Shown: one piece after another, positions 38,888 through 58,060 of the stretch | Layout: each line of letters opens with the position of its first letter | Numbering within the stretch: position 1 is the stretch's first letter | Assembly: GCA_038116745.1 (NCBI GenBank) | Contig: JAYODW010000004.1 | Coordinates: 50,408 to 114,407, forward strand | Origin: Gammaproteobacteria bacterium | GTDB taxonomy: Bacteria; Pseudomonadota; Gammaproteobacteria; Ga0077536 | Length of the DNA: 64,000 bases | Direction of reading: 5' to 3' | Made by a program: the position numbers and the translations under genes | Notes under the pieces: generated by a model | Databases searched by the model: none | The model's input: only the letters and a program-made list of their open reading frames with translations | Told to the model about the DNA's origin: nothing

Positions 38888-39904
38888 TCAGGGGTGGGTT
38901 TCGTCGAGAAAAGGGGCCAGCAGCGCCTCAGTCAACGCCTCAAGCTGTAAGTCCCGTTGCAACACACGCTGCGCTGCATCAGATTCAACGACTTCCATAA
39001 GATCGACTGCAACTTCAGCAAATTCGCTCGCTTTTTCCAGATTCAAGCCTCGCGTCTGGGTAATCAGATTGCGCACCACTACGGCACTGGATCGCCCTGC
39101 CACCTTGAGCAGCACCCCTGCACCTGGGACCGTGCCCAACACGCTCAAGGCGCGCTCAGCGTCCGACACCATCTCGCCACTGAACGCGCTCTTCCCCGAC
39201 AGCGCCGTGTACAGCGAGAGCAGGTTGCCCACCACGGGCGTCGCATCGAGTAGCGTACGCGCCGCTTTTCCAATGACGGTGGGCCTGACGGACAGATACC
39301 GAGCTGCACCGCTGAAGACGTCTTCGCCTTTTGCTTCAGCGAAAAAGGCACCGACGTTGGCCGCAAGCTGTACGAGCGGGTTCTCCTCAGATTCAGTCTG
39401 ACCGACCTCAGTCAAGCGGAACTGCATCGCAGGAATCAAAGGCCAGCGTCCGTAGACCCTGGCGGCGAGCTCAGGTGCCCAAGTCAGCTCCATTGATTCG
39501 GCGTGAAACAGCTCGGATCTTTCCAGCTGGGTCGTGAATGCACCCAGAGCCCGGGCGCAAGCCTTTGCTGTCTTCGGATCAAGTCGAGTGGGAGCGGGAT
39601 GTTCCTTGGCCAGGGCTGCAAGCCGCAGAAAGTCCCGTTTCCCATCCGGCAGCAGTGCGCCGATCTGACGCGCGGTGATTGTGGCAAAACCTGCCGGCAC
39701 CAGGGACTGATATTGCTCGGCCGACAATTCCTGCACCTGCGCTGCACTCAGAGCCTCCACCTGCGACCTCGAAAAAGCCGGGAGGTGACGCTTGCAGAGA
39801 TCTACGCACTGGCTGGTCGTATCACCCGCCGCTACGTCGACAGCGGCTACCTGCTCAGCAGGGCACTGGTGCCCGAACAGGTCATCGAAGACGGCGTAGT
39901 CCAA
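38888..39904 (-). CDS. hypothetical Ala/Leu-rich protein of unknown function (the first 45 codons cross an inferred rearrangement junction)
   Basis: Non-Arg-rich composition with no recognisable family. The open frame upstream of about 39776 overlaps the TpsB fragment and may not be translated. Confidence 0.4.
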   Translation of the reverse strand: MDYAVFDDLFGHQCPAEQVAAVDVAAGDTTSQCVDLCKRHLPAFSRSQVEALSAAQVQELSAEQYQSLVPAGFATITARQIGALLPDGKRDFLRLAALAKEHPAPTRLDPKTAKACARALGAFTTQLERSELFHAESMELTWAPELAARVYGRWPLIPAMQFRLTEVGQTESEENPLVQLAANVGAFFAEAKGEDVFSGAARYLSVRPTVIGKAARTLLDATPVVGNLLSLYTALSGKSAFSGEMVSDAERALSVLGTVPGAGVLLKVAGRSSAVVVRNLITQTRGLNLEKASEFAEVAVDLMEVVESDAAQRVLQRDLQLEALTEALLAPFLDETHP

Positions 39905-41113
39905 CTGCAGGTCATTGAGGGCTATGTCGATTCAGTTACGGTTGAAGGGGTGCACAGCACCCGCTCAGGTCTGCTGGGGCACTACGGAGACCGAATCAAG
40001 GCCAGCCGCCCGCTCAAGCGCGCGGTGCTGGAGCGATATCTGTTGCTGGCGAACGATATTCCAGGTCTGCGTTTCAAGGCGGTGCTGAGTCCGTCTGCTG
40101 CAAACACAGGGGCGGCTGCGCTGACGCTGACTGCCTCTGACGCACGCTGGTCAGGCTCGGTCAGTTTTGACAACCGGGGCGCCGACTACAGCGGGCCCTG
40201 GCAGGGCCTGATCGAGCTCAGCGGCCATAACCTGCTGAGTCTGCTGGAGAGCACGACCGTGCGCTACGCGACGGTTCCTGATGACCTTGAAGAGCTGCAC
40301 TACTGGGCGGTCCGCCATGAGCAGCTCCTGAGCGCGGAAGGACTGCGTCTGGCAGTGGACGTCAGCGGCGCGGATAGTGAAACGGCTTCGGCTGTGCTGA
40401 GCGCACTGGAAGTCGAGACCCAAACGCGAAGCGCGGGACTCACCGTGAGCTACCCGATCCTGCGCTCGCGCGAGCGCAATCAGCGCGCGAGTGTCGGGCT
40501 CGCCATGAAGGACGCTGAGGTCGAGCTACTGGGAGCGATCTACGACCAGAGCGATGGTTTCGGAGGAGGCGGTGTGACCGTCCTGTCGGCTTCTGTGGTG
40601 CAGGGGCTGGACATTATCGATGCGCAGGTAACCAGCTATGTTTCAGCTGATCCGGATTTTACTTACGTATCCCTTTACGCCTGGCGTTCACAGCATCTGT
40701 TCGAGTCCCTCCGGGCCGATGTGCGGCTTTCGGCCCAGCTGACCAATGAAAGTCTTCCCGCGATCGAGCAGGCCGGGCTTGGCGGCGAGCATACGGTGCG
40801 CGGCTATGAGTCTTCAGAGTGGACGGGCGATGAGCTGGTCAACACGTCGCTCGAGCTGGTTTATCAGCTGCCGGCGCCCAGGGTGGAAAGCGTGCAGCTG
40901 CACGGTTTTTATGACTACGGCAAGATCTGGCGCAACAACCCGCAGGTGGGAGAACGCCGGTCGCAGTCAGCCGATGCGAGCGGTGCGGGCACGCGAGTGA
41001 AAATCACGGACCGGCTCGGGCTTGACCTTGAGGCCGCGCGGACGCTGGATGATGACAGCGAAGGCAAATCACGCGGATGGGAGTTTTTTATGCGCGTCCG
41101 CGCGGAATTTTAG
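39779..41113 (+). pseudogene. TpsB (ShlB/FhaC-family) transporter, C-terminal portion from mid-POTRA1 to end, lacking signal peptide
   Basis: Reads REVTLAEIYALAGRITRRYVDSGYLLSRALVPEQVIEDGVVQLQVIEGYVDS (POTRA_2) followed by a beta-barrel ending FMRVRAEF. No signal peptide is present. The track ORF's first 92 codons are spurious read-through. Confidence 0.65.
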
Positions 41114-41218: not shown

Positions 41219-43408
41219 ATGAAGCGGATCAGAAAAGTCCAGGTGTCGACCGGCGTTTACTGGGTAGAAGTGCCGGACGCCAACGCCTACGTGCTCTGCG
41301 GAGCGCCTGCCGACAGCACCAAGCATCTGTTCAAGCGCGGTCTGATCGTTCCCACCGAGAACGACGGTGTGAGTTTCGAGACGGGTCCGAACATCATCTT
41401 GCTTTCAGATCTGATGCTGCAGAACGGCATGTTCTGCAACATGGTTGAATTCCCCATACTGCAGATGCTCTACCGTCAGGGCATGTTGATCCCGGGACAT
41501 CCGAACAACACGGGCCAGAAGCCGCTCCTGGTCGGGTCACCGGATCAGATAGAAGCGCAGCTGCAGTACATCTATCGCGGTAATTACGGACTGGTTTCGA
41601 CCGAGGAGCTGATGGACGCGGGCATGGCTCCGTCAATGGCCGACGAGCTTATGGAAATGAAGCTCAAGTTCGCCTTCGGAAAGATTCACGACACGCTAAA
41701 TTTTCTGGAGACCTGTCCGCTCGGCGCGGCGCGGGTGGAAATCCGCCCGGGGCTCGGGCTGAGGCGGGTGCGGGCGAACGTTTTCGAATTTGATTACGAC
41801 GAGGAGTCGGTCACGATCGACCTCAATCTGGGTAACCACGAAAAATACAGTTCTCCTATTCCGCTCGATTTCCACAACATACAGAAGGAGTACTTCGCGG
41901 TTATCCACAGCGGAGAGGGCGACGGGTGGGATACCGATCGCTCAGCGATGATGTCCATTCTGATGTTTCAGGGGAAGGTGTACCTCATCGATGCTGGTCC
42001 CAGTGTCATTCAGATCCTCGAAGCGCTGGGGATCTCGGTCAATGAGGTTGAGGGAATCTTCCACACGCATTCCCATGACGATCACTTTGCCGGTCTACCG
42101 GCATTGATGAGAACTGATCGACGGCTCAAGTACTTCGCGACGCCCATGGTGCGGGCGTCCGTGGCGAAGAAAATGTGTGCGCTGCTGTCGATGGACGAGA
42201 GCGACCTCGAGTATTACTTCGACATAGAGTCGCTGCAGCACGACACCTGGAATGATATCGACGGCCTGGAAGTGAAACCGATCATCTCCCCGCACCCGGT
42301 CGAAACGACAATCTTTCAGTTCCGCACGCTGTGGGAGGATGGCTACAAGGTATACGCGCACTATGCGGATATCGCCGCGTTTTCCGTCATTGACGGAATG
42401 GTCAAACGAAATGCGGATGAAGCAGGAATCTCGCCGGAGTTTGCCGAGCGCGTGAAGCGGAGCTATCTCGAGCCCGTCGACGTCAAGAAAATCGATATTG
42501 GTGGCGGCATGATTCATGGAGCCGCCAAGGATTTCCGCGCGGACAGCTCAAAGAAAATCGTGCTCGCACATACCGCGCTGGCTCTGAGCGATGAGCAGAA
42601 AGAAATCGGCTCCCAGGCCGCTTTCGGCACGGTTGACGTCCTGATTCCTTCGTTTCAGGACTATGGGCTCAAAGCGGCGTTCGATTATCTGCAGGCGGAT
42701 TTTTCCGACGTGCCCAGTTCGCAGTTCCGGATGCTCCTGAACCATCCGGCGCCAACTCTTAATCCCGGTACCATCGTGGTTCGTGAGGGCGAGGTGTGCG
42801 ATTACACCTATCTCATCCTGAGCGGTTTCGTGGAGATGATTCGGTCATCCCGGCAAGTCAAGCGGCAGCTTTTCGCGGGTTCCATGATCGGTGAAGTGAG
42901 TGCGTTGAGAGAACGTCCGTCCGAGTTCACTTTTCGAACCTTGTCCTATGTCAGGGCGCTGAAGGTGCCGGCACGCCTCTATCGGGACTTTATCCGAATA
43001 AACAACCTCTATTCTCAGGTTGAGCGATTGCACGAAGCGTGGAATTTCCTGATCGAATCCTGGCTCTTCGGCGATGGGATCCCGGATACTGTGCTGAACC
43101 TGCTGGTCCAGAACATCGACCTGCAGGAGCACCCCTGGGGCCACGAATTTGACCTGAAATCAGACCGATCTTTGCGCATGCTCAAGTCCGGCAAGGTTGA
43201 GCTGTACAAGGGTGAGCAGTGTCTCGAGCACCTGCAGCCGGGTGATTTTTTTGGCGAGGAGTGGATTGTCGGCGGGTGGGACTCGGACCGGCGTGTGAGG
43301 GTCGCATCAGATAGCGCCGAGGTTTATGCCATTCGCTCAGAGAAGCTGGAGTACATACCGATCTGTCGCTGGAAGCTGCGCGAGATAGGTGCTCGGCGTC
43401 GTGTGTAG
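41219..43408 (+). CDS. multidomain protein: unknown N-terminal domain + MBL-fold metallo-hydrolase + two cNMP-binding domains
   Basis: MBL motif HTHSHDDHFAG (HxHxDH) with AGP...KVYLIDAGP upstream. The C-terminus carries two cNMP-binding-like beta-barrel/helix units (...GEVCDYTYLILSGFVEM...FAGSMIGEVSAL...; ...YKGEQCLEHLQPGDFFGEEWIVG...). GC is lower than in the surroundings. Confidence 0.75.
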   Translation: MKRIRKVQVSTGVYWVEVPDANAYVLCGAPADSTKHLFKRGLIVPTENDGVSFETGPNIILLSDLMLQNGMFCNMVEFPILQMLYRQGMLIPGHPNNTGQKPLLVGSPDQIEAQLQYIYRGNYGLVSTEELMDAGMAPSMADELMEMKLKFAFGKIHDTLNFLETCPLGAARVEIRPGLGLRRVRANVFEFDYDEESVTIDLNLGNHEKYSSPIPLDFHNIQKEYFAVIHSGEGDGWDTDRSAMMSILMFQGKVYLIDAGPSVIQILEALGISVNEVEGIFHTHSHDDHFAGLPALMRTDRRLKYFATPMVRASVAKKMCALLSMDESDLEYYFDIESLQHDTWNDIDGLEVKPIISPHPVETTIFQFRTLWEDGYKVYAHYADIAAFSVIDGMVKRNADEAGISPEFAERVKRSYLEPVDVKKIDIGGGMIHGAAKDFRADSSKKIVLAHTALALSDEQKEIGSQAAFGTVDVLIPSFQDYGLKAAFDYLQADFSDVPSSQFRMLLNHPAPTLNPGTIVVREGEVCDYTYLILSGFVEMIRSSRQVKRQLFAGSMIGEVSALRERPSEFTFRTLSYVRALKVPARLYRDFIRINNLYSQVERLHEAWNFLIESWLFGDGIPDTVLNLLVQNIDLQEHPWGHEFDLKSDRSLRMLKSGKVELYKGEQCLEHLQPGDFFGEEWIVGGWDSDRRVRVASDSAEVYAIRSEKLEYIPICRWKLREIGARRRV

Positions 43409-44316: not shown

Positions 44317-46362
44317 TCATTCCACCGCAATCCCGCCCTCCGCGAGGGCCTGTTTGAGCTGCGCAACCAGGCGCGACCACTGCACCCGGTGCACCCGGCC
44401 GATCAGATCAACCCGGGGCAGGCCCGCGCCCTTGACCAGGTAGTAGCCATCTTCTGCCGGCATGACGCCATCCATGTGGCAGATGTCGTTTTCCAGGCGG
44501 CAGGACACGCCGAGGCGGTCATAGCCGAAGTGTTTGAATACGCGCAGGAATGTAGTCGACAGCGATGGGCCTCCGCCGGCCACCCTGGAGATAGTGTCGA
44601 CCGCACGCTGGCTCAGGCGGTGACGCGAGTCATCATCCTCGGGCGTGCGCAGGCTGAGATCGAAGCCAACCGGTTCGCCTTTGACGATCCGCAGCTTCTC
44701 GATATCACCATCGAGACGACCACTGACCTGGCCGAAAGGCACCACCTGCGTGATCTGTTCGAGATCCAGACCGCGCATGCGGATGGATGCACTGACCTCG
44801 GGCACGAGCCCGAAAGGCTCCGCGATACGCAGCTCCGCGACTTCAATCGCGCCGTCAAATGCGCTCGCCTCGAGCGTCCCGCCGAGGGTCACGGTGCCAT
44901 CCTGATAGGTCAGCAGCGGCAGCCGGCCGGACAGGCTACCCGCGAACGGCGGCCAGTCGAGGGCCAGGGTCAGCTGACCCAGATCGATGGGCTCCAGCGC
45001 TGCTTCGAATCTGAGCGCAATGTCGTCGCTGGCGTAATTCCGCAGCGAAAAGGCATCCACGCGCAGGGCGCCTCCGAGCAAAGGCACACGCACCGGCGCC
45101 AGCAGGTCGACAGCCTGCCCGGCCATGCCGAGTTCAAGCGTCAGCGCGCCGAAGCCGGCACCGTGCACAAAACCGCCATCCAGCGTAATCAGGCTCGAGC
45201 TGAGGGCGTCACCGCGCGCCGCCCAGATAACTTCACCGTTTATGCCGTAGACGGCAAAACGGCCCTGGCGGTCCTCCAGATGAACCTGTGAGAGCGACAG
45301 ATCAATGGACTGCAGGTCGCCGGCCGCCAGCTCAAAACGCCCCGCAAGCTCGCCGCCGATATCCAGAGTGGCGAACGCCGTGCCGACCAGAAACCCGGCC
45401 AGATATAGATCGTAGAGCGCAGGAAAGCGTCCCTGTCGGATCGCGCCGCGAACGCTGGTGAGCTCTCCTTCTTCCAAGCGCAGTTCATCGAGCGTGACGG
45501 ACAACGCACCAGGCTGCTCGAGCTCAAGTCCGCGCAGCGACAGGACAGCTGCCGCTGGCTCGTAGCTCAGTGCGGTGCTCAAGCGCAGGGGAAATCCGGC
45601 CAGGTCCAGATAGACCGGTTCCACGTAGGCACCGCCGGCGTCGACACCGAGCGTCAGCGTCCCGCGCCACGGCGCCGCATTCCCGCCGCTGAGCTGAAAG
45701 CCGAGAAGCGCATCAAGCGCCTCCGTCGCCACACGACCACTGTCATCACTGCACGCAACGTCGCTGAACTGCATCTCACCCGCAGCGCTTACCCCGGAAT
45801 CCGCTGACTCAAGCCGCAGACTGAAACTCACCTGTCCCGACGAAAAGCTCAGCCCCCGAAGATGTGGCTGTGGTAGTGGCAGCTCGGCGAGAGCGAGACC
45901 TGTTCCCGTCGCCGTAACTGACAGCGCACCGTCCCGCACATCCAGGATCAGCCCGAGCGCCAGTGTGCCCCCGGCCAGCGGAACCGGGAACAGGTCAACG
46001 CCAAGTCGTTGCCCGGGGACGTCATAGCTCAGCGTTGCCTGCATCGGCGGCCAGCCCGGCACCCGTAGGTCAGCGTCACGGCAGGCGACCTCAAGAGCGC
46101 TGATCGACACGCCATAGCAGTGCAAGGAAACATCCTGCAGACGACCTACCGGCGACGGCAGCTCCAGGACGCCCAGCGACAACGTCAGCTCCGGTCCCCG
46201 CGACCCGGCCCAGTCGACGGTGAGGCGCAGGGTCTCGGCGCGCCAGCCCGCACCCTCGATGGCGGCAAGCGTCAGCGCACTCGGCTCTGCAGCATGCGTT
46301 GTCGCGCTAAAGCCAAGCAATACGGCCAGCGCGCCCGCTCGCAGCCGGCCACCAAAACTCAT
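44317..46362 (-). CDS. YdbH/AsmA-like large periplasmic protein
   Basis: Signal peptide. 681 aa, Gly/Leu/Ala-rich repeats. C-terminal YYLVKGAGLPRVDLIGRVHRVQW-type motif. Confidence 0.45.
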   Translation of the reverse strand: MSFGGRLRAGALAVLLGFSATTHAAEPSALTLAAIEGAGWRAETLRLTVDWAGSRGPELTLSLGVLELPSPVGRLQDVSLHCYGVSISALEVACRDADLRVPGWPPMQATLSYDVPGQRLGVDLFPVPLAGGTLALGLILDVRDGALSVTATGTGLALAELPLPQPHLRGLSFSSGQVSFSLRLESADSGVSAAGEMQFSDVACSDDSGRVATEALDALLGFQLSGGNAAPWRGTLTLGVDAGGAYVEPVYLDLAGFPLRLSTALSYEPAAAVLSLRGLELEQPGALSVTLDELRLEEGELTSVRGAIRQGRFPALYDLYLAGFLVGTAFATLDIGGELAGRFELAAGDLQSIDLSLSQVHLEDRQGRFAVYGINGEVIWAARGDALSSSLITLDGGFVHGAGFGALTLELGMAGQAVDLLAPVRVPLLGGALRVDAFSLRNYASDDIALRFEAALEPIDLGQLTLALDWPPFAGSLSGRLPLLTYQDGTVTLGGTLEASAFDGAIEVAELRIAEPFGLVPEVSASIRMRGLDLEQITQVVPFGQVSGRLDGDIEKLRIVKGEPVGFDLSLRTPEDDDSRHRLSQRAVDTISRVAGGGPSLSTTFLRVFKHFGYDRLGVSCRLENDICHMDGVMPAEDGYYLVKGAGLPRVDLIGRVHRVQWSRLVAQLKQALAEGGIAVE

Positions 46363-48128: not shown

Positions 48129-49217
48129 TTACTCTCCAAGCTGCCGGTTCACCGCCGGCATCACTTCTTCGGCCATTAATTCCATCGAGCGGCGCGACAG
48201 CTGGACGTCAGCCCAGTCATGCCCGGCATACACCAGCGTGCCGAAAGCACCGACTTCCTCACGCAGGGCGAGGATCTGCTCGGTCACCTGCTCAGGCGTG
48301 CCGCAGATAACCAGAGAGTTCATCACAAACTCGTGGGTCACTTCGGCGTCCGGCATATCGCGGCGATTCTTGAACAGGTCAGGGCGACCGTTGCCGATCA
48401 GTTTCCGCATCAGGCTGCGATAGTAGTTGCCATAAGGACCGTCGGGATCCATGGCATAGGCGCGTGCGGTTTTCTCATCTTCAGCCACGAAAATACTCTT
48501 CGCCACCCGCCACTGCCCGACGTCAGGCTCCCGTCCGCTCTCCGCCCAGCCCTCGAGCAGCTTGTCCCAGTGCGTCCTGACCCAGGCCGGCTGGAGAAAA
48601 TTGGCAGAGATGATCGACCAGCCGTGGCTGGCAGCGTTCGACACCGAGTCGGAATATGGCGACATGCACGCCACTACAATAGGCGGATACGGCTTCTGCA
48701 GCGGTCCCAGAATGGCGCCCTGCCCGATCTCTAGATCCATGGTGCGTCGCGTGGTCACCTCCCAGAACTCGCCCTTGAGGTCGTAGGGGGCCTCGCCGTC
48801 CCAGATTGCCAGCACCTGGGCGATGGCTTCGTGGAACATCGCCTTGCGATCGCGGTCCAGATTACCGAAGACCTCGGCATCAGAGCGCAGCCCGCCAGGA
48901 CTGATCCCGAGAATAAAGCGGCCAGCGAGCATGTGATCGACCATCGCGACCTGAGCGGCAACCGCGGCAGGATGGCTGTTGGGCAGGTTGATAGTGCCGC
49001 TGCCGAGACGGATCTGCTTGGTGTGATAGGCCAGGCTGGCCAGAAAGATCAGGCAGGAGGTGATCGTTTCCGCCTTGTCGGTGACGTGTTCGCCGACAAA
49101 GGCCTCGTGAAAGCCGAGACTGTCAGCAAGCAGGATCGCCGCCCGATCTTCAGCCAGTGTGATGCTGTAGTCGCGCGTGATCGGATGCAGCGGCATGGTG
49201 AAATAACTGAGCTTCAT
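48129..49217 (-). CDS. LLM-class flavin-dependent monooxygenase/oxidoreductase
   Basis: Luciferase-like pattern (FHEAFVGEHV, ICGTPEQVTEQI). Confidence 0.8.
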   Translation of the reverse strand: MKLSYFTMPLHPITRDYSITLAEDRAAILLADSLGFHEAFVGEHVTDKAETITSCLIFLASLAYHTKQIRLGSGTINLPNSHPAAVAAQVAMVDHMLAGRFILGISPGGLRSDAEVFGNLDRDRKAMFHEAIAQVLAIWDGEAPYDLKGEFWEVTTRRTMDLEIGQGAILGPLQKPYPPIVVACMSPYSDSVSNAASHGWSIISANFLQPAWVRTHWDKLLEGWAESGREPDVGQWRVAKSIFVAEDEKTARAYAMDPDGPYGNYYRSLMRKLIGNGRPDLFKNRRDMPDAEVTHEFVMNSLVICGTPEQVTEQILALREEVGAFGTLVYAGHDWADVQLSRRSMELMAEEVMPAVNRQLGE

Positions 49218-51463
49218 GATGTAGTCCCGTGGGAATCGTCAGCGTTGAAAGATGAGTTTTTTCGCGCGCGATACTCGGCCGCGGACAGCGCCGCCTGGTA
49301 GCGCGCATAGGCCGCCTTGCGATCCGGTGGGGCCGCTGCAGCGGCGTCGAAGGTCGGCGCGAGGTCCGGGGGGTAGCAGCCGAGCTTCTGCTCTGAGGCC
49401 CCCATCGGCGCGCGGAACACCAGCTCGCGCACGTTCGTCCGGCGCGCTTCGATAACCTGACCGTTTTCGTCGCTGTCTAGATCCCACCACCATTTCTTCA
49501 GCGGGTTGATACGCCCATTTCCGACCCGGTCGTCGAGCGCTGCAATCCAGCCGCGCGTGAACGGCAGGTGCATCGCGGACCACAGAAAGGGCCGCTCCGC
49601 GAGCACGCCTTCGATGTTCCACGGGCAGGTTTTCATACAGCGCCCGCACATCGAGCCGGCGGCATTGGTAATGCGGTAACGCGCGCATTTTTCGACGTCG
49701 GGCTTCCACATCTCGTAGCCGTTGAACATGATCTTGTCGCCGAAAGGGATCGCCGCACAGGGACATTCGCGCGCGCATTTGCTGCACTTGTTACAGAAAT
49801 CCTGCAGGCCGAAGTCGATCGGTTGATCCACCGCCAACGGCAGGTCGGTGGTGATGATCCCGGACTTGAAACGCGGCCCGACGAACGGGTTCAGCACCAG
49901 CTCGCCGATCCTCGAGAGCTCGCCCAGGCCGGAATTGAGGATCAGCGGAATGTGCAGTACATCCTGGTCCATCACCGAATGCCCGCGTGCGCCATAGCCG
50001 AGACGCCGGATCTGGGAGCCGACCACGCCGCCGAGCAGCTGCGCGCGCATGTAGGCGCGCATCGATTGCGCGCCCGAGATCCAGTCGTCACCGCTCGCGC
50101 CCTCCATGGTTTCGTAACCCTGGTCGATCAGGATCACGATGGCATAGCGGTGATACGGCTCGATGGGAGAACCGTCGGTGTCGTGGGAGTACCAGGCATA
50201 GTCGGGCACGCGACAGATCCCGACCATGTCCGCCCCCAGGTAATACAGCGCCGCCTTGACGAGTTCTGCATTGCGCTTCGGATCGTCATAGCCCGGCGTC
50301 CGCTCCGGCGCCGTCTCACCGTATTGCAGCGGCACCATCCCGCCCAGCACCGGCACCATGGCGTGGCCGAACGGGGATTTGGTGATCATGCGAAAACCTT
50401 TCAGCTCACGCTGCGCCTTCTCTCCCAGGTCGCCCATGGCGGCGCGGATAAACATATCGTGGCGCTTGGGCACCCGCGGCACCGCCTGTTCATCCACCAG
50501 GGTGGTGGGCTCGGCCACTCGCTTCACGCGCTCCATGGGATACCGCCCGAGGTGATAGTCGCGCCCGCGGTATGGCTCGCCGGCATATCCGGGGCGCGCG
50601 CCGCCCCAGCCCAGCCACCATTTGAATCCGCGCGCCGATCCACTGCCGGCGGCCAGCGGACCGGCATCCTCCAGCGCAAGCGTGGTGCTCACCGCGACCA
50701 GTCCGAACCGCCGGCCGACAAAAGGGTTCCCGGATCCGCCGTCACGTTGTTCAGCAAGTCCGGCCGCCAGCGCCAGCGCGTCAAGATCAAGCTCAGCCGC
50801 GGTCACGGTATGCAGCCGCGCGTCGAAACCCAGCATGCGCAGGTAGTTGGCCATGACCGCTCCGACCTCGGCACCGCGCAGTGCGGCGCGGGCGGCCTGC
50901 ATGTCGAGGATCCAGTCGGCGCCGGGCTCATCGGCGCGCGGGTCGCGCGGGTACTCAGTCAGGATGACCAGCGCGAACGGATGCTCGCAGCGCTCCTCTT
51001 CAACCGCGGACCGCGCCCAGGCTTCGCGTCCCTCGGCCACCACGTTCTCGGCCATCCGGTTGTCCGCCGCGCCTGGGGCGTAGGTGCGCGCCTGCTCCTC
51101 GGCCAGCGACACATTGGTGACGGGGACAGTGAGACGGGCGGCCTCCGGGACCCGACAGGTGGCTGCCATACTCGCATCCAGGTAATAGCAACCGCCCTGC
51201 AGGTGACGGCTGCGCTCCAGCGGCGAGTCCGGGATGGGCGCCACTGCGGGCGCCACCGGTCCGTTGCGCATCCGGTCCATGAGATCGATGTAGTCGCGCA
51301 GCACGTTGCGCAGGGAGCCGGGGCGCTGCGGCGCCTCCAGCTCGAAGGGAGCGGCAGGCGACCCCGTCGGCGGCACAGCCGCACCCGCGGCGCGTGGAAG
51401 TCGCTCCAAAGGAAAGCTACCGGCCCAGGCCGGACGTCGACGATGGGAGAACAGACGAACCAT
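49214..51463 (-). CDS. reductive dehalogenase homolog (cytoplasmic, NpRdhA/BhbA-like 'catabolic' type), cobalamin + 2x[4Fe-4S]
   Basis: C-terminal CNKCSKCARECP (CxxCxxCxxxCP) and CARYRITNAAGSMCGRCMKTCP ferredoxin-type motifs. About 750 aa with no TAT signal. The 4-nt overlap with the downstream LLM gene suggests an operon. Confidence 0.7.
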   Translation of the reverse strand: MVRLFSHRRRPAWAGSFPLERLPRAAGAAVPPTGSPAAPFELEAPQRPGSLRNVLRDYIDLMDRMRNGPVAPAVAPIPDSPLERSRHLQGGCYYLDASMAATCRVPEAARLTVPVTNVSLAEEQARTYAPGAADNRMAENVVAEGREAWARSAVEEERCEHPFALVILTEYPRDPRADEPGADWILDMQAARAALRGAEVGAVMANYLRMLGFDARLHTVTAAELDLDALALAAGLAEQRDGGSGNPFVGRRFGLVAVSTTLALEDAGPLAAGSGSARGFKWWLGWGGARPGYAGEPYRGRDYHLGRYPMERVKRVAEPTTLVDEQAVPRVPKRHDMFIRAAMGDLGEKAQRELKGFRMITKSPFGHAMVPVLGGMVPLQYGETAPERTPGYDDPKRNAELVKAALYYLGADMVGICRVPDYAWYSHDTDGSPIEPYHRYAIVILIDQGYETMEGASGDDWISGAQSMRAYMRAQLLGGVVGSQIRRLGYGARGHSVMDQDVLHIPLILNSGLGELSRIGELVLNPFVGPRFKSGIITTDLPLAVDQPIDFGLQDFCNKCSKCARECPCAAIPFGDKIMFNGYEMWKPDVEKCARYRITNAAGSMCGRCMKTCPWNIEGVLAERPFLWSAMHLPFTRGWIAALDDRVGNGRINPLKKWWWDLDSDENGQVIEARRTNVRELVFRAPMGASEQKLGCYPPDLAPTFDAAAAAPPDRKAAYARYQAALSAAEYRARKNSSFNADDSHGTTS

Positions 51464-51492: not shown

Positions 51493-53100
51493 TCAGCTAC
51501 CTGGCGTCATCACCAGGTCAATGACAGCGGCGGTACCGGCCGCAAATGCGCTTTCGAGCGCGCCTTCGAATTTGCCCGTGTGCTCCACCCGGGCGCCGAA
51601 GAGCCCGAAGGTCCGCGCCATGGCCGCGAAATCGGGGTTGGTCAACTCGGTGCCCAGAGGACGTCCGGGATAATGACGGTCCTGGTGCATTTCAATCGTG
51701 CCGTAGCGGGCGTTATTGAATACCAGGATTAGCGGCCTCGCGCCGTACTTAGCCGCAGTGGCCAGCTCCATCCCCGTCATGAGCATACCGCCGTCGCCGA
51801 CGCAGCCGATCACCTGACGCTCGGGCAGCGTGAGCGCGGCGCCTATGGCGCTGGGCACACCGTGCCCCATCGCGCCGTTAACCGGACCGAGCAGACGACC
51901 AGGTCGACGGTACTGGCGGTAGCGGTGCGGCCAGACGGTGAAATTGCCGGCGTCGATCGCCACTACCGCGTCGTCGCGAAGATGGCTGTTCAGAATCTGC
52001 ATGACTGCATGCGGATCGAGCGGTTCCCTGCCGCGCTCGCGCTCGAGGCTGGCGCGATAGGCTGCATTAAGACGCTGGCACCAGGGCACGGTGTCCGCGC
52101 GCACGCCGGGTGCGGCTGCGGCCAGCGCTGCGCTCGTCGCTTCGATATCCGCCACCACCGCAATCTGTGGGGAATAATTCACACTGAGCTCGCGCGCCTG
52201 GGGGTAGACGTGGATCAGCGTGCGCTCGCGCCCGTCATTGAACAGGGTGTACCCCAGCGTCGTCGGCTCGTCGAGACGCGCGCCCAGCACCAAAACACAA
52301 TCTGCCTCGGCTGCAAGCTCTGTCGCCTCGGGATGGGCGTTGTAGCCCAGGTAGCCGGCATAGCAAGGATGCCGGTTGTCGAAACAATCCTGGCGACGGA
52401 AGGCCGTCATCACCGGAATCACATGAGCCTCGGCAAAACGCACCAGGTCGGCGACGGCGGCGTCGGTCCAGGTGCCGCCGCCGGCAATGATCAGCGGCCG
52501 CTCAGCCTGCGCCAGCGCCGCACGGATGCGACCGAGGTCGTCCGCGCCCGGGCCAGCCGCAGCCGCCGGGGCGACTCGTGGACCCGCCTGCGTGGTTGCT
52601 TCAGTCAGCACATCTTCAGGTAATGCCAGCGCCACAGGCCCCGGACGCCCGCTTTCCGCAATGCGAAACGCGCGGGCAAAAGCCGCGCCCAGGTCGTCGG
52701 CCTGCTCGATCTGCTCAACGTGCTTGACCAGCTGCGGCAGCAAGCTGGTGTAGTCCAGCTCCTGAAAGGCCTCGCGACCTAAATGGCGGCGCGACACCTG
52801 GCCGATGCCGATCACCAGCGGGATCGAAGCCTGCTGCGCGACATGCAGAGCTATCGTCGCATTGGTTGCACCCGGGCCACGGGTGACAAAGACGACGCCA
52901 GCCCGCTGCCGCAGCCGTGCATTCGCGCAGGCCATGAAGGCGGCGCCGCTTTCGTGCCGACATGAGATGTAGCGGATCTGATCCTGCGCGCCGTAAAGCC
53001 CGTCCAGTACCGCGAGATAGCTTTCGCCGGGCACGCCGAAGACGGTATCAACCCCCTGCTCCAGCAACGCCGCGACGACCTGTTCACCGCCGCTGCTCAT
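51493..53100 (-). CDS. thiamine pyrophosphate-dependent enzyme (acetolactate synthase/benzoylformate decarboxylase family)
   Basis: TPP_enzyme N/M/C architecture and GDGG TPP-binding motif (GCVGDGGMLMTG). Confidence 0.8.
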   Translation of the reverse strand: MSSGGEQVVAALLEQGVDTVFGVPGESYLAVLDGLYGAQDQIRYISCRHESGAAFMACANARLRQRAGVVFVTRGPGATNATIALHVAQQASIPLVIGIGQVSRRHLGREAFQELDYTSLLPQLVKHVEQIEQADDLGAAFARAFRIAESGRPGPVALALPEDVLTEATTQAGPRVAPAAAAGPGADDLGRIRAALAQAERPLIIAGGGTWTDAAVADLVRFAEAHVIPVMTAFRRQDCFDNRHPCYAGYLGYNAHPEATELAAEADCVLVLGARLDEPTTLGYTLFNDGRERTLIHVYPQARELSVNYSPQIAVVADIEATSAALAAAAPGVRADTVPWCQRLNAAYRASLERERGREPLDPHAVMQILNSHLRDDAVVAIDAGNFTVWPHRYRQYRRPGRLLGPVNGAMGHGVPSAIGAALTLPERQVIGCVGDGGMLMTGMELATAAKYGARPLILVFNNARYGTIEMHQDRHYPGRPLGTELTNPDFAAMARTFGLFGARVEHTGKFEGALESAFAAGTAAVIDLVMTPGS

Positions 53101-53137
53101 GGCGCTGCCCGCCGCTCAGCGCAGATGGGCGCTCGGC

Positions 53138-54109
53138 TCACGGTGCCAGAATGGGAATGCTGAGTTCAGCGCGATCCTCGAGATGCAGATGCGCCGCAGC
53201 GGCATCGGCAAGCGCAAAACGTTTGACCGGATGCGGCCGCAGAACGCCTGCATCCAGCGCCTCGAACACGCGCCCGGCGCTCAGCTCGAGCTCGGCGCGT
53301 TCGGCAACGTAATCGTTAAGACGCGGACGCGTCAGATAGAGCGATCCCAGGCGCGACAGTCCCAGCACATCGTAGGGGTCCGGCTTTCCGGAAGCGTTGC
53401 CGTAGGCAACCATGAGGCCGCGGCGACGCAGGCATTCCAGTGATTTCTCGAACGTGTCTTTCCCGACCGAGTCGTAGACCACATCCACGCCGCGTCCGCC
53501 CGTCATCGCCTTCACCTGCTCCACGAAGTCGTCCTGCTGATGCAGCAACACCTGCTCCGCTCCGGCCTCCCGCGCCGCGGCAAACTTGCTCTCGCTGCCG
53601 ACGGTGGCGATGACCCGAGCGCCCAGGTGTCGCGCCCACTGCACCATGAGCAGACCCGTGCCGCCGACCGCCGCATGGACAATGACGGTTTCATCCGGCT
53701 GCACGGCATGCAGCCGGAACAGCAGGTATTCGGCCGTCATAGCGCGGGTCAGGGTCGCGGCCACAACATCAGGATCAACGCCGTCCGGAATGCGGACCAC
53801 CTGATCCGCGCGGATCACCCGCCTTTCACAGTAGGCCCTGGCGACTGAACCGTAGGCCACCGTATCACCCTCAGCCAGCTCACTTACCCCTGGACCAAGT
53901 GCTTCAACCACCCCCACCGCCTGGTCGCCGATCACGGCCGGCAGGGGAATGGGATAAATGCCACGACGGAAATAGGTGTCGATGTAGTTGACCCCGATCC
54001 CCGTGTGACGGATGAGCACTTCGCCCGGGCCCGGGCTGCCCAGATCGATTTCGGACAGGGTCAGCTGTTCAACGCCGCCATAGGCGTGAATGACAATAGC
54101 GGGGGTCAC
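53138..54109 (-). CDS. qor: NADPH:quinone oxidoreductase (MDR/zinc-ADH superfamily)
   Basis: Qor pattern (MTPAIVIHAYGG..., AAVGGTGLLMVQWA). Confidence 0.85.
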   Translation of the reverse strand: MTPAIVIHAYGGVEQLTLSEIDLGSPGPGEVLIRHTGIGVNYIDTYFRRGIYPIPLPAVIGDQAVGVVEALGPGVSELAEGDTVAYGSVARAYCERRVIRADQVVRIPDGVDPDVVAATLTRAMTAEYLLFRLHAVQPDETVIVHAAVGGTGLLMVQWARHLGARVIATVGSESKFAAAREAGAEQVLLHQQDDFVEQVKAMTGGRGVDVVYDSVGKDTFEKSLECLRRRGLMVAYGNASGKPDPYDVLGLSRLGSLYLTRPRLNDYVAERAELELSAGRVFEALDAGVLRPHPVKRFALADAAAAHLHLEDRAELSIPILAP

Positions 54110-54177
54110 GCGTGTTCTCCGGGTGTGTGGTCAGCCGAGTATACCCGCGCGGCATGGGGCCTGATTCCCTGCAATGC
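53969..54177. repeat. direct repeat copy 1 (about 209 bp; qor 5' end + upstream region)
   Basis: About 97% identical to 55711..55919 (4-5 mismatches by eye). Confidence 0.8.
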
Positions 54178-54692
54178 CAACGCCAACAACCGTTGGGGTA
54201 CACCTCATTCGAACGGAAATCAGACGTTCACAACACGTAAATCATCTCTAGCAGCCCAGCTGCCTAGATCTTCCGAACCCATAACCAAGCCGTTCGAGAC
54301 TGGTTATAGCGGTGAGAGCTGCTCGCCGCATGAGGTCGACATCCATATCTCATGGACATTTTTCTACTACAGACCGGCTAGCTTCAGAGGGCGCGCCGCC
54401 GGACAGGCCAGTAATTGCCCAAAATGATGCGTTTCCTTTCCCGGTTCTTTCGTCCGCAGGGGGGATGGTCGAAATAGGACCTCTGTCTTGCGCCTTGCGC
54501 ATATCCGCTGAGAGGCCATCCGAAGCTTGCGAAACCTCTGCCGGACCGCCCCAGCCTCAGACATCGAAACAGAACAGGTAGGGAAGGCATCGCGGTTAGC
54601 TATTCAAAAAGCGGGGTTGTCCTTCTCAGCTTCTATCTGCGGAAGCTGGCTCACCCCCCCTAAGGGCGGGCTGTCTCAACTGCTCAGATAGC

Positions 54693-55382
54693 TTAACCGG
54701 CCAATCGCAGAGCGTAGTAGAAATGATGCGAGAAAAGCCCAAGATTCGATTCCTGAAACAGCCGCTTCCAGGGTTTCCGGGACACCGGCCTGTAAATTCT
54801 AATTAATTCGAATCCCAGTCTCCGGGACAGTTCATAGATCATAGACTCAGTCATCCATAGGACATGTTCACAGCTAGCAGTGAACATTCGCTTCCTAACG
54901 ACCCGGAAAACGTTTGTTAAACAAAAAGGGTTAGGGGTCGCGATCAGCAAAATTCCGTCGAGCTCAAGATGTCGTCTCGCAAACGCAAACAATGAGTCCA
55001 GGGAATGCACGTGCTCTATCAAATCTCCCATAAAGACGACTTGGAACTGCCTGCCCAGAAACCGATCCGATGTCGCGTCACATAGCGCCACATCAAAGCC
55101 GTCCTTCTTCAGCGCATCAACCATAGACTGAACAATATCGATCCCAAGGCAGTCCGAAGCGACTTGAACGATCTTCCTGTGCTTCCACTTGGTTGACCTA
55201 AAGCGAGGCAAATCGTGGGCCGCCGCTCCGATATCTAGGACCGACTTGCCTTCAAACAAGTGGAGTAACCCACTGAAGCCACCGGCAAGGGGTTGTGTCA
55301 AGGACTGCAGATGCCTCTGAATATCTTCGAGGACAGAAGTGTCTTTCGGATCGTCTGTTCGTGCGGTCCAGTCAATAGTCAT
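54693..55382 (-). CDS. class I SAM-dependent methyltransferase
   Basis: Motif I (VLDIGAAAHDL). GC markedly lower than flanking genes. Confidence 0.7.
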   Translation of the reverse strand: MTIDWTARTDDPKDTSVLEDIQRHLQSLTQPLAGGFSGLLHLFEGKSVLDIGAAAHDLPRFRSTKWKHRKIVQVASDCLGIDIVQSMVDALKKDGFDVALCDATSDRFLGRQFQVVFMGDLIEHVHSLDSLFAFARRHLELDGILLIATPNPFCLTNVFRVVRKRMFTASCEHVLWMTESMIYELSRRLGFELIRIYRPVSRKPWKRLFQESNLGLFSHHFYYALRLAG

Positions 55383-55578
55383 AGTCAGGAGCCTCGATAA
55401 TGCCCCCGCTCTGCTCAGGTAGTTTTGCTTCTTTCACGCTACTCACGATATTCGCAATGGAATCGCAGCCTTCCTGCTTGGATAGCATACGACCAACCTG
55501 ATGAATCACTGGATGCGGCACTGAGTTGACGAATGCTTCCCCATCTTCCAAGGCAGCGATGGGATAGCGTCCCATCAC
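55372..55578 (-). CDS. small hypothetical protein (68 aa) upstream of the methyltransferase
   Basis: Low-GC ORF overlapping the MTase start by about 10 nt. No family recognised. Confidence 0.25.
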   Translation of the reverse strand: MMGRYPIAALEDGEAFVNSVPHPVIHQVGRMLSKQEGCDSIANIVSSVKEAKLPEQSGGIIEAPDYDY

Positions 55579-55710
55579 ATGACAAGCTGCTCAATAGAAG
55601 CGTTATAGCGACTGAGGGGACGTTGCCCCCCGCTGTAGGCTCACATAACGAAATCGGGCACCTCAAGGAGCTGGTCACAGGCGGTGGGTAACAGGATAGA
55701 GCCTTGGACA

Positions 55711-55919
55711 GAAATAGGTGTCGATGTAGTTCACCCCGATCCCCGTGTGACGAATGAGCACTTCACCCGGGCCCGGGCTGCCCAGATCGATTTCGGACAG
55801 GGTCAGCTGTTCAACGCCGCCATAGGCGTGAATGACAATAGCGGGGGTCACGCGTGTTCTCCGGGTGTGTGGTCAGCCGAGTATACCCGCGCGGCAAGGG
55901 GCCTGATTCCCTACAATGC
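55711..55919. repeat. direct repeat copy 2 (about 209 bp), containing a 47-codon qor 5' fragment (55711..55851, minus)
   Basis: Duplicate of 53969..54177. Encodes MTPAIVIHAYGGVEQLTLSEIDLGSPGPGEVLIRHTGIGVNYIDTYF with no continuation. Confidence 0.8.
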
Positions 55920-55948
55920 GGGCGCCAGCAACTGCCGGAGAGCCATCC

Positions 55949-56536
55949 ATGTCAGCCACCGAGGTCCGCGTTTATTTCAACTTCCGCAGCCCCTACGGTT
56001 ACCTGGCTTCCCACAGCCTGTTTGAACGCCTCGCGCGTTATGACATCAGGCTGGGCTGGCGCTCCCTGGGGGGCTGGGACGGCCGCTCACCGCCTGACCG
56101 GGCCAAGGTCAAAATCCCACTCACGCGACAGGACGTCGCGCGCTGGTGCCGGCGCCTCAAGGTGCCCTTCAACCCGCCGCCGGTCAGCACCGATCCCACG
56201 CCGGCAGCGATGGCCTGCTTCGCCGCCGAGAGCGCCGGGCTGCTCGCGCCCTATGTGAAAGCGGTGATGTGGGAGGAATGGGCGGAAGGCCGGGATATCG
56301 GTCAAACCGAGGTGCTGCTCGATATTGCCAGCCGCATCGGCCTCGACGGCGATGTCGTCGAGCAGGCGCTGAACGATGCGTCAAACGCCGGCCGTCTGTC
56401 AGCCAACTGGGCCGAGGCGAGCGAACTCGGCGTCATCGGCGTACCGACCTTCGTCGTCGGCGACGAGATCTTCTGGGGCAATGACCGCCTCGATTTCGTC
56501 GAGGAGCATCTGGCGGGTCTCGGACTCGCGCGCTGA
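55949..56536 (+). CDS. 2-hydroxychromene-2-carboxylate isomerase / DsbA-like thioredoxin-fold protein
   Basis: HCCA-isomerase pattern (VRVYFNFRSPYGYL, GVIGVPTFVVGDEIFWGNDRL). Start ATG 55949. Confidence 0.75.
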   Translation: MSATEVRVYFNFRSPYGYLASHSLFERLARYDIRLGWRSLGGWDGRSPPDRAKVKIPLTRQDVARWCRRLKVPFNPPPVSTDPTPAAMACFAAESAGLLAPYVKAVMWEEWAEGRDIGQTEVLLDIASRIGLDGDVVEQALNDASNAGRLSANWAEASELGVIGVPTFVVGDEIFWGNDRLDFVEEHLAGLGLAR

Positions 56537-56539
56537 ACC

Positions 56540-56990
56540 GGCCCTCAGGCAAGCGCCGGCATCACCTGAGCGACGATCAGCTCGCGTGGGCGCATCAGGT
56601 CCGCATGTCTCACATCGCCGGTAGCGATCTGCGCAGGCAGATAAGTCGCGCCCGCCTGCTCAGGCTACGACAGCAGCTCATCAGCGATCCTTTGCGGCGA
56701 AACGCACACCGTCACGCCGATCTCGCGAGCGGTTTCAAAGTTGTACAGCGGACCGAGCCGGATACGGCTGGTCGCCTGAGTGACTGCAGCAAAAACACTG
56801 AAGGACAGGATCCCACTCCAAGCGGCGTGCCGTGATGTTCCGCCAGGTGGTAACCCCGATAGCCGCCGGCCTCGGCAGCCTGGATGACTTCAATACGGTC
56901 AGCCAGGGGGCGCGCGTGCCCACGGCTTCTAATCGAAGTGGTCAAAAATTCCAAACTGCACGCGTTCTCATCCTTGCTGTCGGGTGTCTT
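56540..56990 (-). pseudogene. remnant of an LLM-family monooxygenase gene (internal deletion/frameshifts)
   Basis: Minus-strand frames encode an N-terminal LLM motif (...AGGYRGYHLAEHHGTPLGV) and a C-terminal LLM motif (...VCVSPQRIADELL, compare ICGTPEQVTEQIL in 48129..49217) only about 350 bp apart. Confidence 0.45.
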
Positions 56991-58060
56991 CAGGCGCCCG
57001 TCGGACGCTTCCAGATACCGCGCTCGACCATCAGCGCAATCTGCCGCTCCGTCACCTCCCGCGCGTATTCCGCGTGGTCCATCGGCGCGCGCTCGGCATA
57101 CAGGTTTTTCGGGTAGATGGGCCGTTCGTAGATCAGCTGGATCATCTCCGTACGCAGATCCTTCATCCAGTTGGTCCACTTGGAATGCGTTCGATGGTGA
57201 CGCAACGCCTCGATGTTGACCGGACCGCAGACGCTGGTTGAGACCCCGCCATAATCCTGCCGGCCGACTACCTGACCGCGATAATCCACCAGCATGGAGT
57301 GCCCGCCAAAGGTATCGATGGGCGCTTCTGAATCGGCATCGAGATAATAGGTGCCGAGGTTCGGCGCCAGCACGTAGAAGTTGTTGTCGAGCGCACGGGC
57401 GCGGGTCTGGATCTCGAAGTAATCATTCGACGCGGCGGGGTGCGGGATCGATGCGCGGTACACCAGCTCCGCACCGTTCATTGCCAGACCGCGCGCGTGT
57501 TCCGGGTAGGACCCCTCGTTAGCCATCATGATCCCGAGCCGGCCGATAGGCGTGTCGACTACCGGCCAGAACGCATCGAGGCTGCGCCCGTAGCGTTCTA
57601 TCCACCAGTCAAACACGTCATGCGGGCACATCGAGTGCTCGACCGGATACAGGGGCGCAACCTTGTAGTGCTGCAGGATGACCGCCCCATCAGGATCGAT
57701 GATGAAGCCGACGTTGAAGAAACGCTCGGGCCAGTCGGGGTGTCGCGCCTTGGCCTGCGCCATGAGGTAGACCCCGTACTCGCGCGCGATCGCGCCCAGT
57801 GCGTCGGTTTCGGGGCCCGGGATATCGATCGCACAGGTACGCGCGTAGATCGCGTGGTCCAGATCCAGTACTTCGTCGTTGAACGCCTGCAGCGCGCCCT
57901 CGGGTAATGCGATTAGGCGCACCGGCAGGTCCAGGCCCGCAAGCCAGCAGGCGGCTTTAATCATGTGCCGCTGGTGCTCGATGTTGCGCAGGATGTCCGT
58001 CCGCTCGCGGATCCCCCACACGGTGGGGACCAGGCCAACGGCGTTATACGGTTCGATCAT
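56990..58060 (-). CDS. carbon-nitrogen hydrolase, aliphatic amidase/formamidase (AmiE/AmiF)-like, catalytic Cys replaced by Ala
   Basis: Collinear with AmiE: Glu (LIALPEG) and Lys (HYKVAPLYP) conserved. The nucleophile position IICDDGNYPE is MMANEGSYPE here. Confidence 0.75.
   Translation of the reverse strand: MIEPYNAVGLVPTVWGIRERTDILRNIEHQRHMIKAACWLAGLDLPVRLIALPEGALQAFNDEVLDLDHAIYARTCAIDIPGPETDALGAIAREYGVYLMAQAKARHPDWPERFFNVGFIIDPDGAVILQHYKVAPLYPVEHSMCPHDVFDWWIERYGRSLDAFWPVVDTPIGRLGIMMANEGSYPEHARGLAMNGAELVYRASIPHPAASNDYFEIQTRARALDNNFYVLAPNLGTYYLDADSEAPIDTFGGHSMLVDYRGQVVGRQDYGGVSTSVCGPVNIEALRHHRTHSKWTNWMKDLRTEMIQLIYERPIYPKNLYAERAPMDHAEYAREVTERQIALMVERGIWKRPTGA

Follow-up and report, generated by a model that had tools for sequence, protein, structure and literature searches.

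A methyltransferase islet between 209-bp allelic direct repeats at a recombination hotspot beside qor in an uncultured gammaproteobacterium

The 64,000-nucleotide (nt) stretch of contig JAYODW010000004.1 analyzed here (the window) comes from an uncultured marine-type gammaproteobacterium and contains a small genomic islet, seen in one strain, between qor, a gene of the NADPH:quinone oxidoreductase family, and a divergently transcribed DsbA-family gene. The islet consists of a foreign insert with a methyltransferase gene, bracketed by long direct repeats that each include the 5' end of qor; the site that it occupies is empty in conspecific strains, and the two repeat copies are different alleles of the host segment. 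The islet lies at a recombination hotspot and is a new example of known processes, not a new kind of element. As the route of its insertion we tentatively favor the integration of a small circle through a single homologous crossover.

Two allelic copies of a host segment around a foreign insert

The locus is organized as follows (coordinates are those of the window):

53138..54109, minus strand: qor, NADPH:quinone oxidoreductase family, intact, with 68 bp of its native upstream region retained
53969..54177: direct repeat copy 1 (S), which runs on into the intact qor
54178..55710, minus strand: foreign insert, 1,533 bp, 52.6% GC, absent from 12 conspecific contigs
54178..54692: segment of 515 bp downstream of the methyltransferase gene, without a supported open reading frame (ORF) or RNA structure
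54693..55382, minus strand: intact gene for a class I S-adenosylmethionine (SAM)-dependent methyltransferase of 229 amino acids (aa), Pfam Methyltransf_23
55372..55578, minus strand: ORF of 68 aa that belongs to no family (ORFan), overlapping the methyltransferase start by 11 nt
55675..55851, minus strand: orphan qor' ORF of 58 aa, 47 native codons (residues identical to those of Qor) plus 11 foreign codons
55711..55919: direct repeat copy 2 (S'), an orphan qor 5' fragment plus upstream region that joins the native intergenic DNA on the DsbA side
55949..56536, plus strand: DsbA-family (HCCA-isomerase-like) gene, the ancestral divergent neighbor of qor

The two repeats (53969-54177 and 55711-55919) align over 209 bp, always 1742 bp apart, and differ at 5 positions (97.6% identity). 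Each copy comprises, in copy-1 coordinates, qor codons 1-47 (53969-54109, 141 nt) and 68 bp of the region upstream of this gene (54110-54177); the three mismatches inside the qor codons are all in third positions and synonymous, and the edges of the duplication are soft. An earlier note on this DNA, made from the sequence alone, had described repeats of about 97% identity with precisely this content, the first copy continuous with the intact qor and the second an orphan fragment, and each of these points holds, the orphan corresponding to the 58-aa ORF. When the window is compared with itself, the 209-bp pair is the only long repeat in the 64 kb, which excludes chance. Furthermore, a Logan contig (SRR26337560; 2 samples) is 100% identical to positions 54125-55783, including both junctions between the insert and the repeats as well as the copy-specific single-nucleotide polymorphisms (SNPs). 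Thus, as far as this can be tested, the suspicion that the repeats are assembly artefacts is not borne out, given that both junctions are present in a second assembly.

The ancestral state of the locus is represented in conspecific contigs that were reached via a protein cluster, the Qor proteins of which (P0003 and 15 other members) are 99% identical to that of the window. Twelve of these contigs (L168-L172, L177-L182 and L184), which show 96-99% nucleotide identity to the window, cover the locus, and in all 12 the DsbA-family gene and qor are divergent and 97 bp apart, with the 209-bp segment present in a single copy. Another contig of the same cluster, L186, breaks off 45 bp upstream of qor, with neither of the two states visible. 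A scan of GTDB-representative genomes and JGI metagenomes with Qor retrieved only relatives of at most 55% identity, which are uninformative on the empty site, and the exact Qor and DsbA sequences of the window had no database entry. The same DsbA-qor adjacency is found in more distant relatives (L173-L175, 70% aa identity). Since neither the insert nor the duplication occurs in the 12 conspecific contigs, both are derived features, specific to the strain. The proposal of the earlier note that the insert separates two once-adjacent divergent genes is thereby supported, and the opposite possibility, that the arrangement is ancestral and conserved, does not agree with the empty site in the relatives. 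The window can be described as the empty site plus a unit made of the 209-bp segment and the 1,533-bp cargo: copy 1 keeps collinearity with qor, copy 2 keeps it with the DsbA side, and to the right of copy 2 the window is collinear with the empty-site contigs.

The five positions at which the copies differ have the following states in the copies and in the empty-site strains (in the order 53990, 54011, 54023, 54155, 54171, in copy-1 coordinates):

Copy 1: G G G T G
Copy 2: C A A A A
Common haplotype (11 empty-site contigs): G G A A A
L184 (closest relative): C A A T A

Standing polymorphisms with identical states exist among the empty-site strains at three of these sites (53990, 54011 and 54155), and for this reason the two copies are different alleles, not one sequence that decayed after duplication; the coincidence of new mutations with the polymorphic sites and their states would, by a rough estimate, have a probability of the order of 1e-6. 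The left part of copy 2 (C, A) combined with the right part of copy 1 (T) gives the L184-type haplotype, and the left part of copy 1 combined with the right part of copy 2 gives the common haplotype. One crossover anywhere in 54011-54155 accounts for all sites, with two private SNPs left.

The flanks were also compared with the contigs L168-L188 for mosaic structure and private SNPs, over window positions 51500-54177 and 55712-57100. L184 differs from the window by 1-2 nt per 200 bp across 52578-53177 and by 5-10 nt per 200 bp across 51578-52377. The SNPs that are private to the window are clustered, e.g., at 56557-56564.

The cargo of the islet

The GC content of the insert (52.6%) contrasts with that of the left and right flanks (64.9% and 64.4%), and its contents are those that had been read from the sequence before, i.e., an AT-richer middle with a SAM-dependent methyltransferase, a small ORF and about 500 bp with no convincing ORF. 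The methyltransferase is a full-length match to Methyltransf_23 (E = 7e-12; 45.8 bits, cutoff 27) and belongs to a family of moderate to large size, made up of ~230-aa proteins, with 648 representatives at E <= 1e-10. Its closest relative (P0137, 46% identical) is encoded on an 836-bp contig and hence has no gene context. Another relative (P0002, 42% identical) terminates a glycan-biosynthesis cluster, its neighbor being a GT4 glycosyltransferase, and this context suggests that the cargo enzyme is an O-methyltransferase acting on sugars or small molecules, not a DNA methylase. A scan of the insert against a library of defense systems yielded just mad2, which matches the methyltransferase fold weakly and in part, so that a role in defense or DNA methylation is unsupported. 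The SAM-binding motif I of the protein (residues 46-56) reads VLDIGAAAHD in place of the usual GxGxG, and P0002 has VLDVGVVCHE; the enzyme thus seems to belong to a subfamily with a non-canonical glycine loop.

The ORFan, for which the gene call on the Logan contig is 67 aa, matched nothing but itself in a search of 5.8 billion proteins. For the 515-bp segment downstream of the methyltransferase gene, the earlier note had raised the possibility of an attC-like or non-coding RNA structure, and none was found. The ORFs of 54178-54692 have no family match; an Rfam scan of 53000-57000 gave nothing in this segment at E <= 1, the only hit being a chance-level YrlA match outside the insert; and folding of both strands was no better than that of shuffled sequences (z-scores +0.8 and -1.1). 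An interpretation of 54178-54692 as a non-coding RNA or an attC site was dropped for want of an Rfam match and a folding signal.

The insert contains no recognizable mobility genes or sites. Scans of all its ORFs with Pfam, PHROGs and PADLOC identified the methyltransferase only, with no transposase, integrase or reverse transcriptase, and the larger neighboring ORFs that were scanned (which did not amount to a protein-by-protein scan of the window) are catabolic and include no integrase, recombinase or reverse transcriptase. No attC-like structure and no terminal inverted repeats at 54178/55710 were detected in an inverted-repeat scan of the insert. Consensus scans of the insert for promoters and terminators gave no matches at its ends or in the 515-bp segment. 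A tRNA gene search of the window found none, and neither a BLAST search of the insert against plasmids and phages nor a search of IMG/VR with the methyltransferase returned a match.

All cargo genes are co-directional with qor, on the minus strand. Copy 2 places the qor upstream region and 47 codons directly before the ORFan and the methyltransferase gene in the same orientation, and the orphan qor' ORF likewise lies upstream of these two genes and reads in their direction. The 68 bp upstream of qor that are duplicated in this manner include a GGAG ribosome-binding site, and strains of the L187 type (see below) manage with about 55 bp. From this layout, it appears that the duplicated host promoter region may transcribe the promoterless-looking cargo, i.e., that the insertion may have resulted in promoter capture.

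Alternative contents of the DsbA-qor locus

A second, different insertion is present within the same 97-bp intergenic region in other strains of the species, represented by L187 (= L183), L188 (= L185) and the contigs behind P0133 and P0136; the latter two were assigned to this insertion on the ground that the end of the island encodes the N-terminal extension MGALLAEMAVNQ of P0133 and P0136. The second island spans 6.05 kb (L187:1277-7326, ENA ERZ27275788 k141_4377884), has a GC content of 52-59% and encodes two sugar epimerases/dehydratases and two GT2 glycosyltransferases. Its junction corresponds to window positions 55906-55908, 11 bp from the junction in the window, and shows a 3-bp (AAT) overlap with no long duplication. 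In both islands, the end near qor contains a TGTTGGCG-like motif. Comparison of the window insert with the 6-kb island of L187 and with the neighborhood of the 42% methyltransferase homolog (blastn, tblastx) revealed no similarity outside the methyltransferase core. Both insertions at the locus carry glycan-type genes.

Given that three alternative contents (empty, the methyltransferase islet and the 6-kb glycan island) occur between the same flanking genes, the DsbA-qor locus behaves like a gene-content hotspot, in the manner of a minimal mobile element. The content varies between the same conserved genes in the closest relatives, and there are no mobility genes.

A third indel is found just past the DsbA-family gene, between window positions 56680 and 56989, where L168 (127-2005), L177 (1293-3171), L178 and L182 have 1.9 kb with two glutaminase-domain genes, one of them also coding for ankyrin repeats; the window, L169 and L187 hold about 310 bp instead. 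This makes for a second indel hotspot, at a distance of one gene from the islet. In the window, the region between the DsbA-family and CN-hydrolase genes contains the remnant of a luciferase-like monooxygenase gene (56540-56990, minus strand), frameshifted and internally deleted; with its frames joined, the product matches positions 3-71 of Pfam Bac_luciferase at 37.5 bits.

Farther from the islet, the second lowest-GC stretch of the window (41219-43408, 55.6-56.8%) codes for a 729-aa protein that combines metallo-beta-lactamase and cyclic-nucleotide-binding domains, and the gene of a ShlB/FhaC-type transporter of two-partner secretion (39503-41113) adjoins it. The catabolic cluster of the window includes two conserved ORFs on the minus strand, of 749 aa (49214-51463) and 681 aa (44317-46362), with no Pfam family at E <= 1e-5; in the precomputed annotations of its orthologs, the 749-aa protein has a faint 4Fe-4S match alone.

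Route of insertion and relation to known systems

Just outside both repeat ends, the insert shows patchy in-register similarity to the sequence that would continue the other copy (match P values assume a background match rate of 0.27):

54178..54196: zone of junction J1, left end of the insert, 12/19 matches to the native intergenic sequence 55920-55938 (P = 0.0011)
55684..55710: zone of junction J2, right end of the insert, 15/27 matches to the qor sequence 53942-53968 (P = 0.0017, empirical frequency 0.002)

Patchy microhomology of this size is the usual appearance of illegitimate recombination junctions. Because it is found in register on either side, illegitimate recombination probably spliced the cargo and the 209-bp segment together at each end. 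Significance is limited to the in-register test, as free local alignment of the 100-bp junction flanks gave no significant match (P = 0.09 and 0.43). An interpretation of the right end of the insert as a longer, diverged qor fragment from a distant relative was rejected, as the similarity ends after about 27 nt and is no better against L173, the relative with 70% identity.

The allele pattern and its phasing across the copies fit one crossover, and for this reason we favor, with a probability of about 0.45, a route in which the islet derives from a small circle. By this account, a small circular DNA would have carried the cargo together with a roughly 209-bp qor 5'/upstream segment from a conspecific strain, illegitimate recombination guided by microhomology having spliced this segment to the two ends of the cargo; the circle would then have entered the chromosome through one RecA-type crossover inside the shared segment. 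Integration of this Campbell type necessarily duplicates the segment on both sides of the cargo, and the outcome would be two copies, each a hybrid of the chromosomal allele and the (L184-like) allele of the circle. The geometry of the window is that of such a product: direct repeats of the homologous segment flank the cargo, and the chromosome is collinear on both outer sides. Also consistent with circle integration are the empty site and the structure of the window as this site plus segment and cargo, the lack of transposition or site-specific machinery, the allelic nature of the copies together with their phasing, the microhomology at the junctions and the co-directional cargo. The earlier note had left the mechanism open among recombination, duplicative insertion and a tandem duplication whose middle was replaced; the allele pattern points to recombination.

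Several observations weigh against circle integration. The reciprocal-hybrid pattern of the copies fits a single crossover in 6/32 random assignments of the five sites as well (4/8 for the three informative ones), so that the phasing by itself is a weak argument and chance could produce it, and the population is mosaic, so that later allelic conversion after a one-step duplication could mimic the phasing. The lengths of the microhomology stretches were chosen post hoc, after the data had been seen. Window-private SNPs are absent from 55712-56304 and resume at 56305, so that copy 2 could come from a longer imported tract; this gap is not decisive, as stretches of 300-400 bp free of private SNPs also occur on the qor side. 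Finally, no circular form, second integrated copy or relative of the cargo elsewhere was found in the protein, plasmid, phage and IMG/VR searches, and the cargo has no replication gene, which leaves the origin and persistence of a 1.74-kb circle unexplained.

The insertion and the duplication could also have arisen in one step, if a linear foreign fragment bridged sister chromosomes or fork arms at points 209 bp apart, as filler at the junction of a tandem duplication, with the copies diverging later through recombination with other alleles and two mutations. The patchy microhomology at both junctions is typical of illegitimate joining, the strongly recombining, mosaic population makes later conversion of either copy plausible, position 53969/55711 is G in both copies but A in each of the 15 other haplotypes, and there is no trace of a circle, or of the cargo, anywhere else. 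Nevertheless, we consider this scenario somewhat unlikely: it needs more events (the insertion, two mutations and at least two conversion tracts with an end inside the 209 bp), it would make a coincidence of the coherent division of an L184-like haplotype over the copies, and a route in which a foreign fragment of 1.5 kb bridges sister molecules is, to our knowledge, not well documented in bacteria. It is improbable that the whole arrangement was brought from another strain by double-crossover homologous recombination in the flanking core genes, as happens with minimal mobile elements, the differences between the copies reflecting the boundary between donor and recipient. Such a block import would agree with the lack of private SNPs in copy 2 and the next 385 bp, as opposed to 1.2-1.6% on the qor side, with their abrupt return at 56305, and with the three alternative contents of the locus among close relatives; but the comparable SNP-free stretches on the qor side weaken the first of these points, no donor with the arrangement was found, and an import accounts for the spread of the duplication, not for its origin, which makes it compatible with the other models without replacing them.

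The contig could, in principle, have been assembled from an empty chromosome and a free 1,742-bp circle (or a tandem array), threaded together through the 131-bp identical core of the repeats. The Logan contig ends inside this core on both sides and so cannot tell an integrated from a circular form, and the alternative phasing yields two alleles, each one SNP away from a sampled haplotype. Against such an artefact, which we regard as very improbable, the 130-kb NCBI contig passes through the two copies and phases their SNPs differently, a circle of 1.74 kb that has no replication gene should not persist at assembly-level coverage, and a core of 131 bp is shorter than the usual reads or the largest k-mers. 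Hardly credible is the remaining explanation, that the islet is the remnant of a site-specific integrative element, integron cassette or transposon that lost its recombinase gene, with the repeats being attL/attR or an unusually long target duplication. A preferred site might be suggested by the unrelated island that other strains have at a distance of only 11 bp, and likewise by the motif shared by the two island ends near qor; but neither the insert nor the larger neighboring ORFs scanned encode an integrase, transposase or reverse transcriptase, the insert has no terminal inverted repeats and no attC-like hairpin, the window has no tRNA gene, the other island shows only its 3-bp overlap in place of a long duplication, and the family of the cargo enzyme shows no association with such elements. 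A diversity-generating retroelement, suggested by the A in copy 2 at 4/5 mismatches, was considered and rejected: no reverse transcriptase was detected in the insert or the scanned neighboring ORFs (the scan covered part of the ORFs of the window), all differences inside codons are synonymous and located at the qor 5' end, and 3/5 of the sites are standing polymorphisms in strains without copy 2.

Campbell-type single-crossover integration is known from suicide and integrative plasmids and from the formation of Hfr and F' strains. The product geometry is the same as in the islet, with direct repeats around the cargo and copies that may each be a hybrid of the parental alleles, whereas here there is no detectable replicon, plasmid backbone or circle, the cargo is 1.5 kb, and the setting is a natural uncultured population, not a laboratory construct. 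Target-site duplications of typical insertion sequences and transposons are 2-14 bp long. The islet resembles these elements in being an insertion bracketed by a direct target duplication but differs from them in the length of this duplication (209 bp) and in having neither a transposase nor inverted ends; the view that the duplication is too long for a classical target-site duplication is thus supported, also with regard to the failure to find terminal inverted repeats, an integrase or attC. Similarly to integron gene cassettes, the cargo is small, AT-richer and apparently promoterless, with 1-2 ORFs oriented for an upstream promoter; in contrast to these cassettes, it lacks an attC hairpin, an integron integrase and attI and is flanked by a duplicated segment of the host. 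A remnant of a site-specific integrative element, such as a prophage, an integrative and conjugative element or an integrative and mobilizable element, is not indicated either, as there is no recombinase in the insert and no tRNA gene in the window.

Homology-facilitated illegitimate recombination was reportedly described for DNA uptake by de Vries and Wackernagel in 2002. The term is used in PMC6382021. In common with this process, foreign DNA in the islet is joined at patchy similarity of a few to about 25 nt; the difference is that the process normally results in insertion with deletion or replacement of recipient DNA, not in a 209-bp duplication. Minimal mobile elements are gene-content hotspots in Neisseria (Saunders & Snyder 2002, as described in PMC3787668). 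The DsbA-qor locus is similar to these in having alternative cargo between the same conserved genes, no mobility genes and mosaic flanks, with homologous exchange plausible; it differs in its 209-bp target duplication, which double-crossover exchange does not produce; a flanking duplication is no part of the definition of minimal mobile elements.

A further-reaching interpretation, which we consider doubtful, is that the islet is a minimal non-autonomous 'homology-hitchhiking' cassette that captured a 209-bp host promoter/5' piece as its sole attachment site. If this were the case, a recombinase-less, circularizable unit would loop out and re-enter conspecific genomes by means of the host RecA, and integration would set promoterless genes behind a duplicated host promoter, with the host gene left intact.

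The islet does not challenge current understanding, and the methyltransferase that it carries is uncharacterized and has no signature of defense, resistance or regulation. It provides a natural case, with the empty site as proof, of a small accessory gene entering a recombining environmental population at a hotspot, with no machinery dedicated to mobility. In the long, seemingly hybrid duplication the recombination event has left a record; the duplication spares the upstream region of the host gene and provides the foreign genes with a duplicate of a promoter region from the host.

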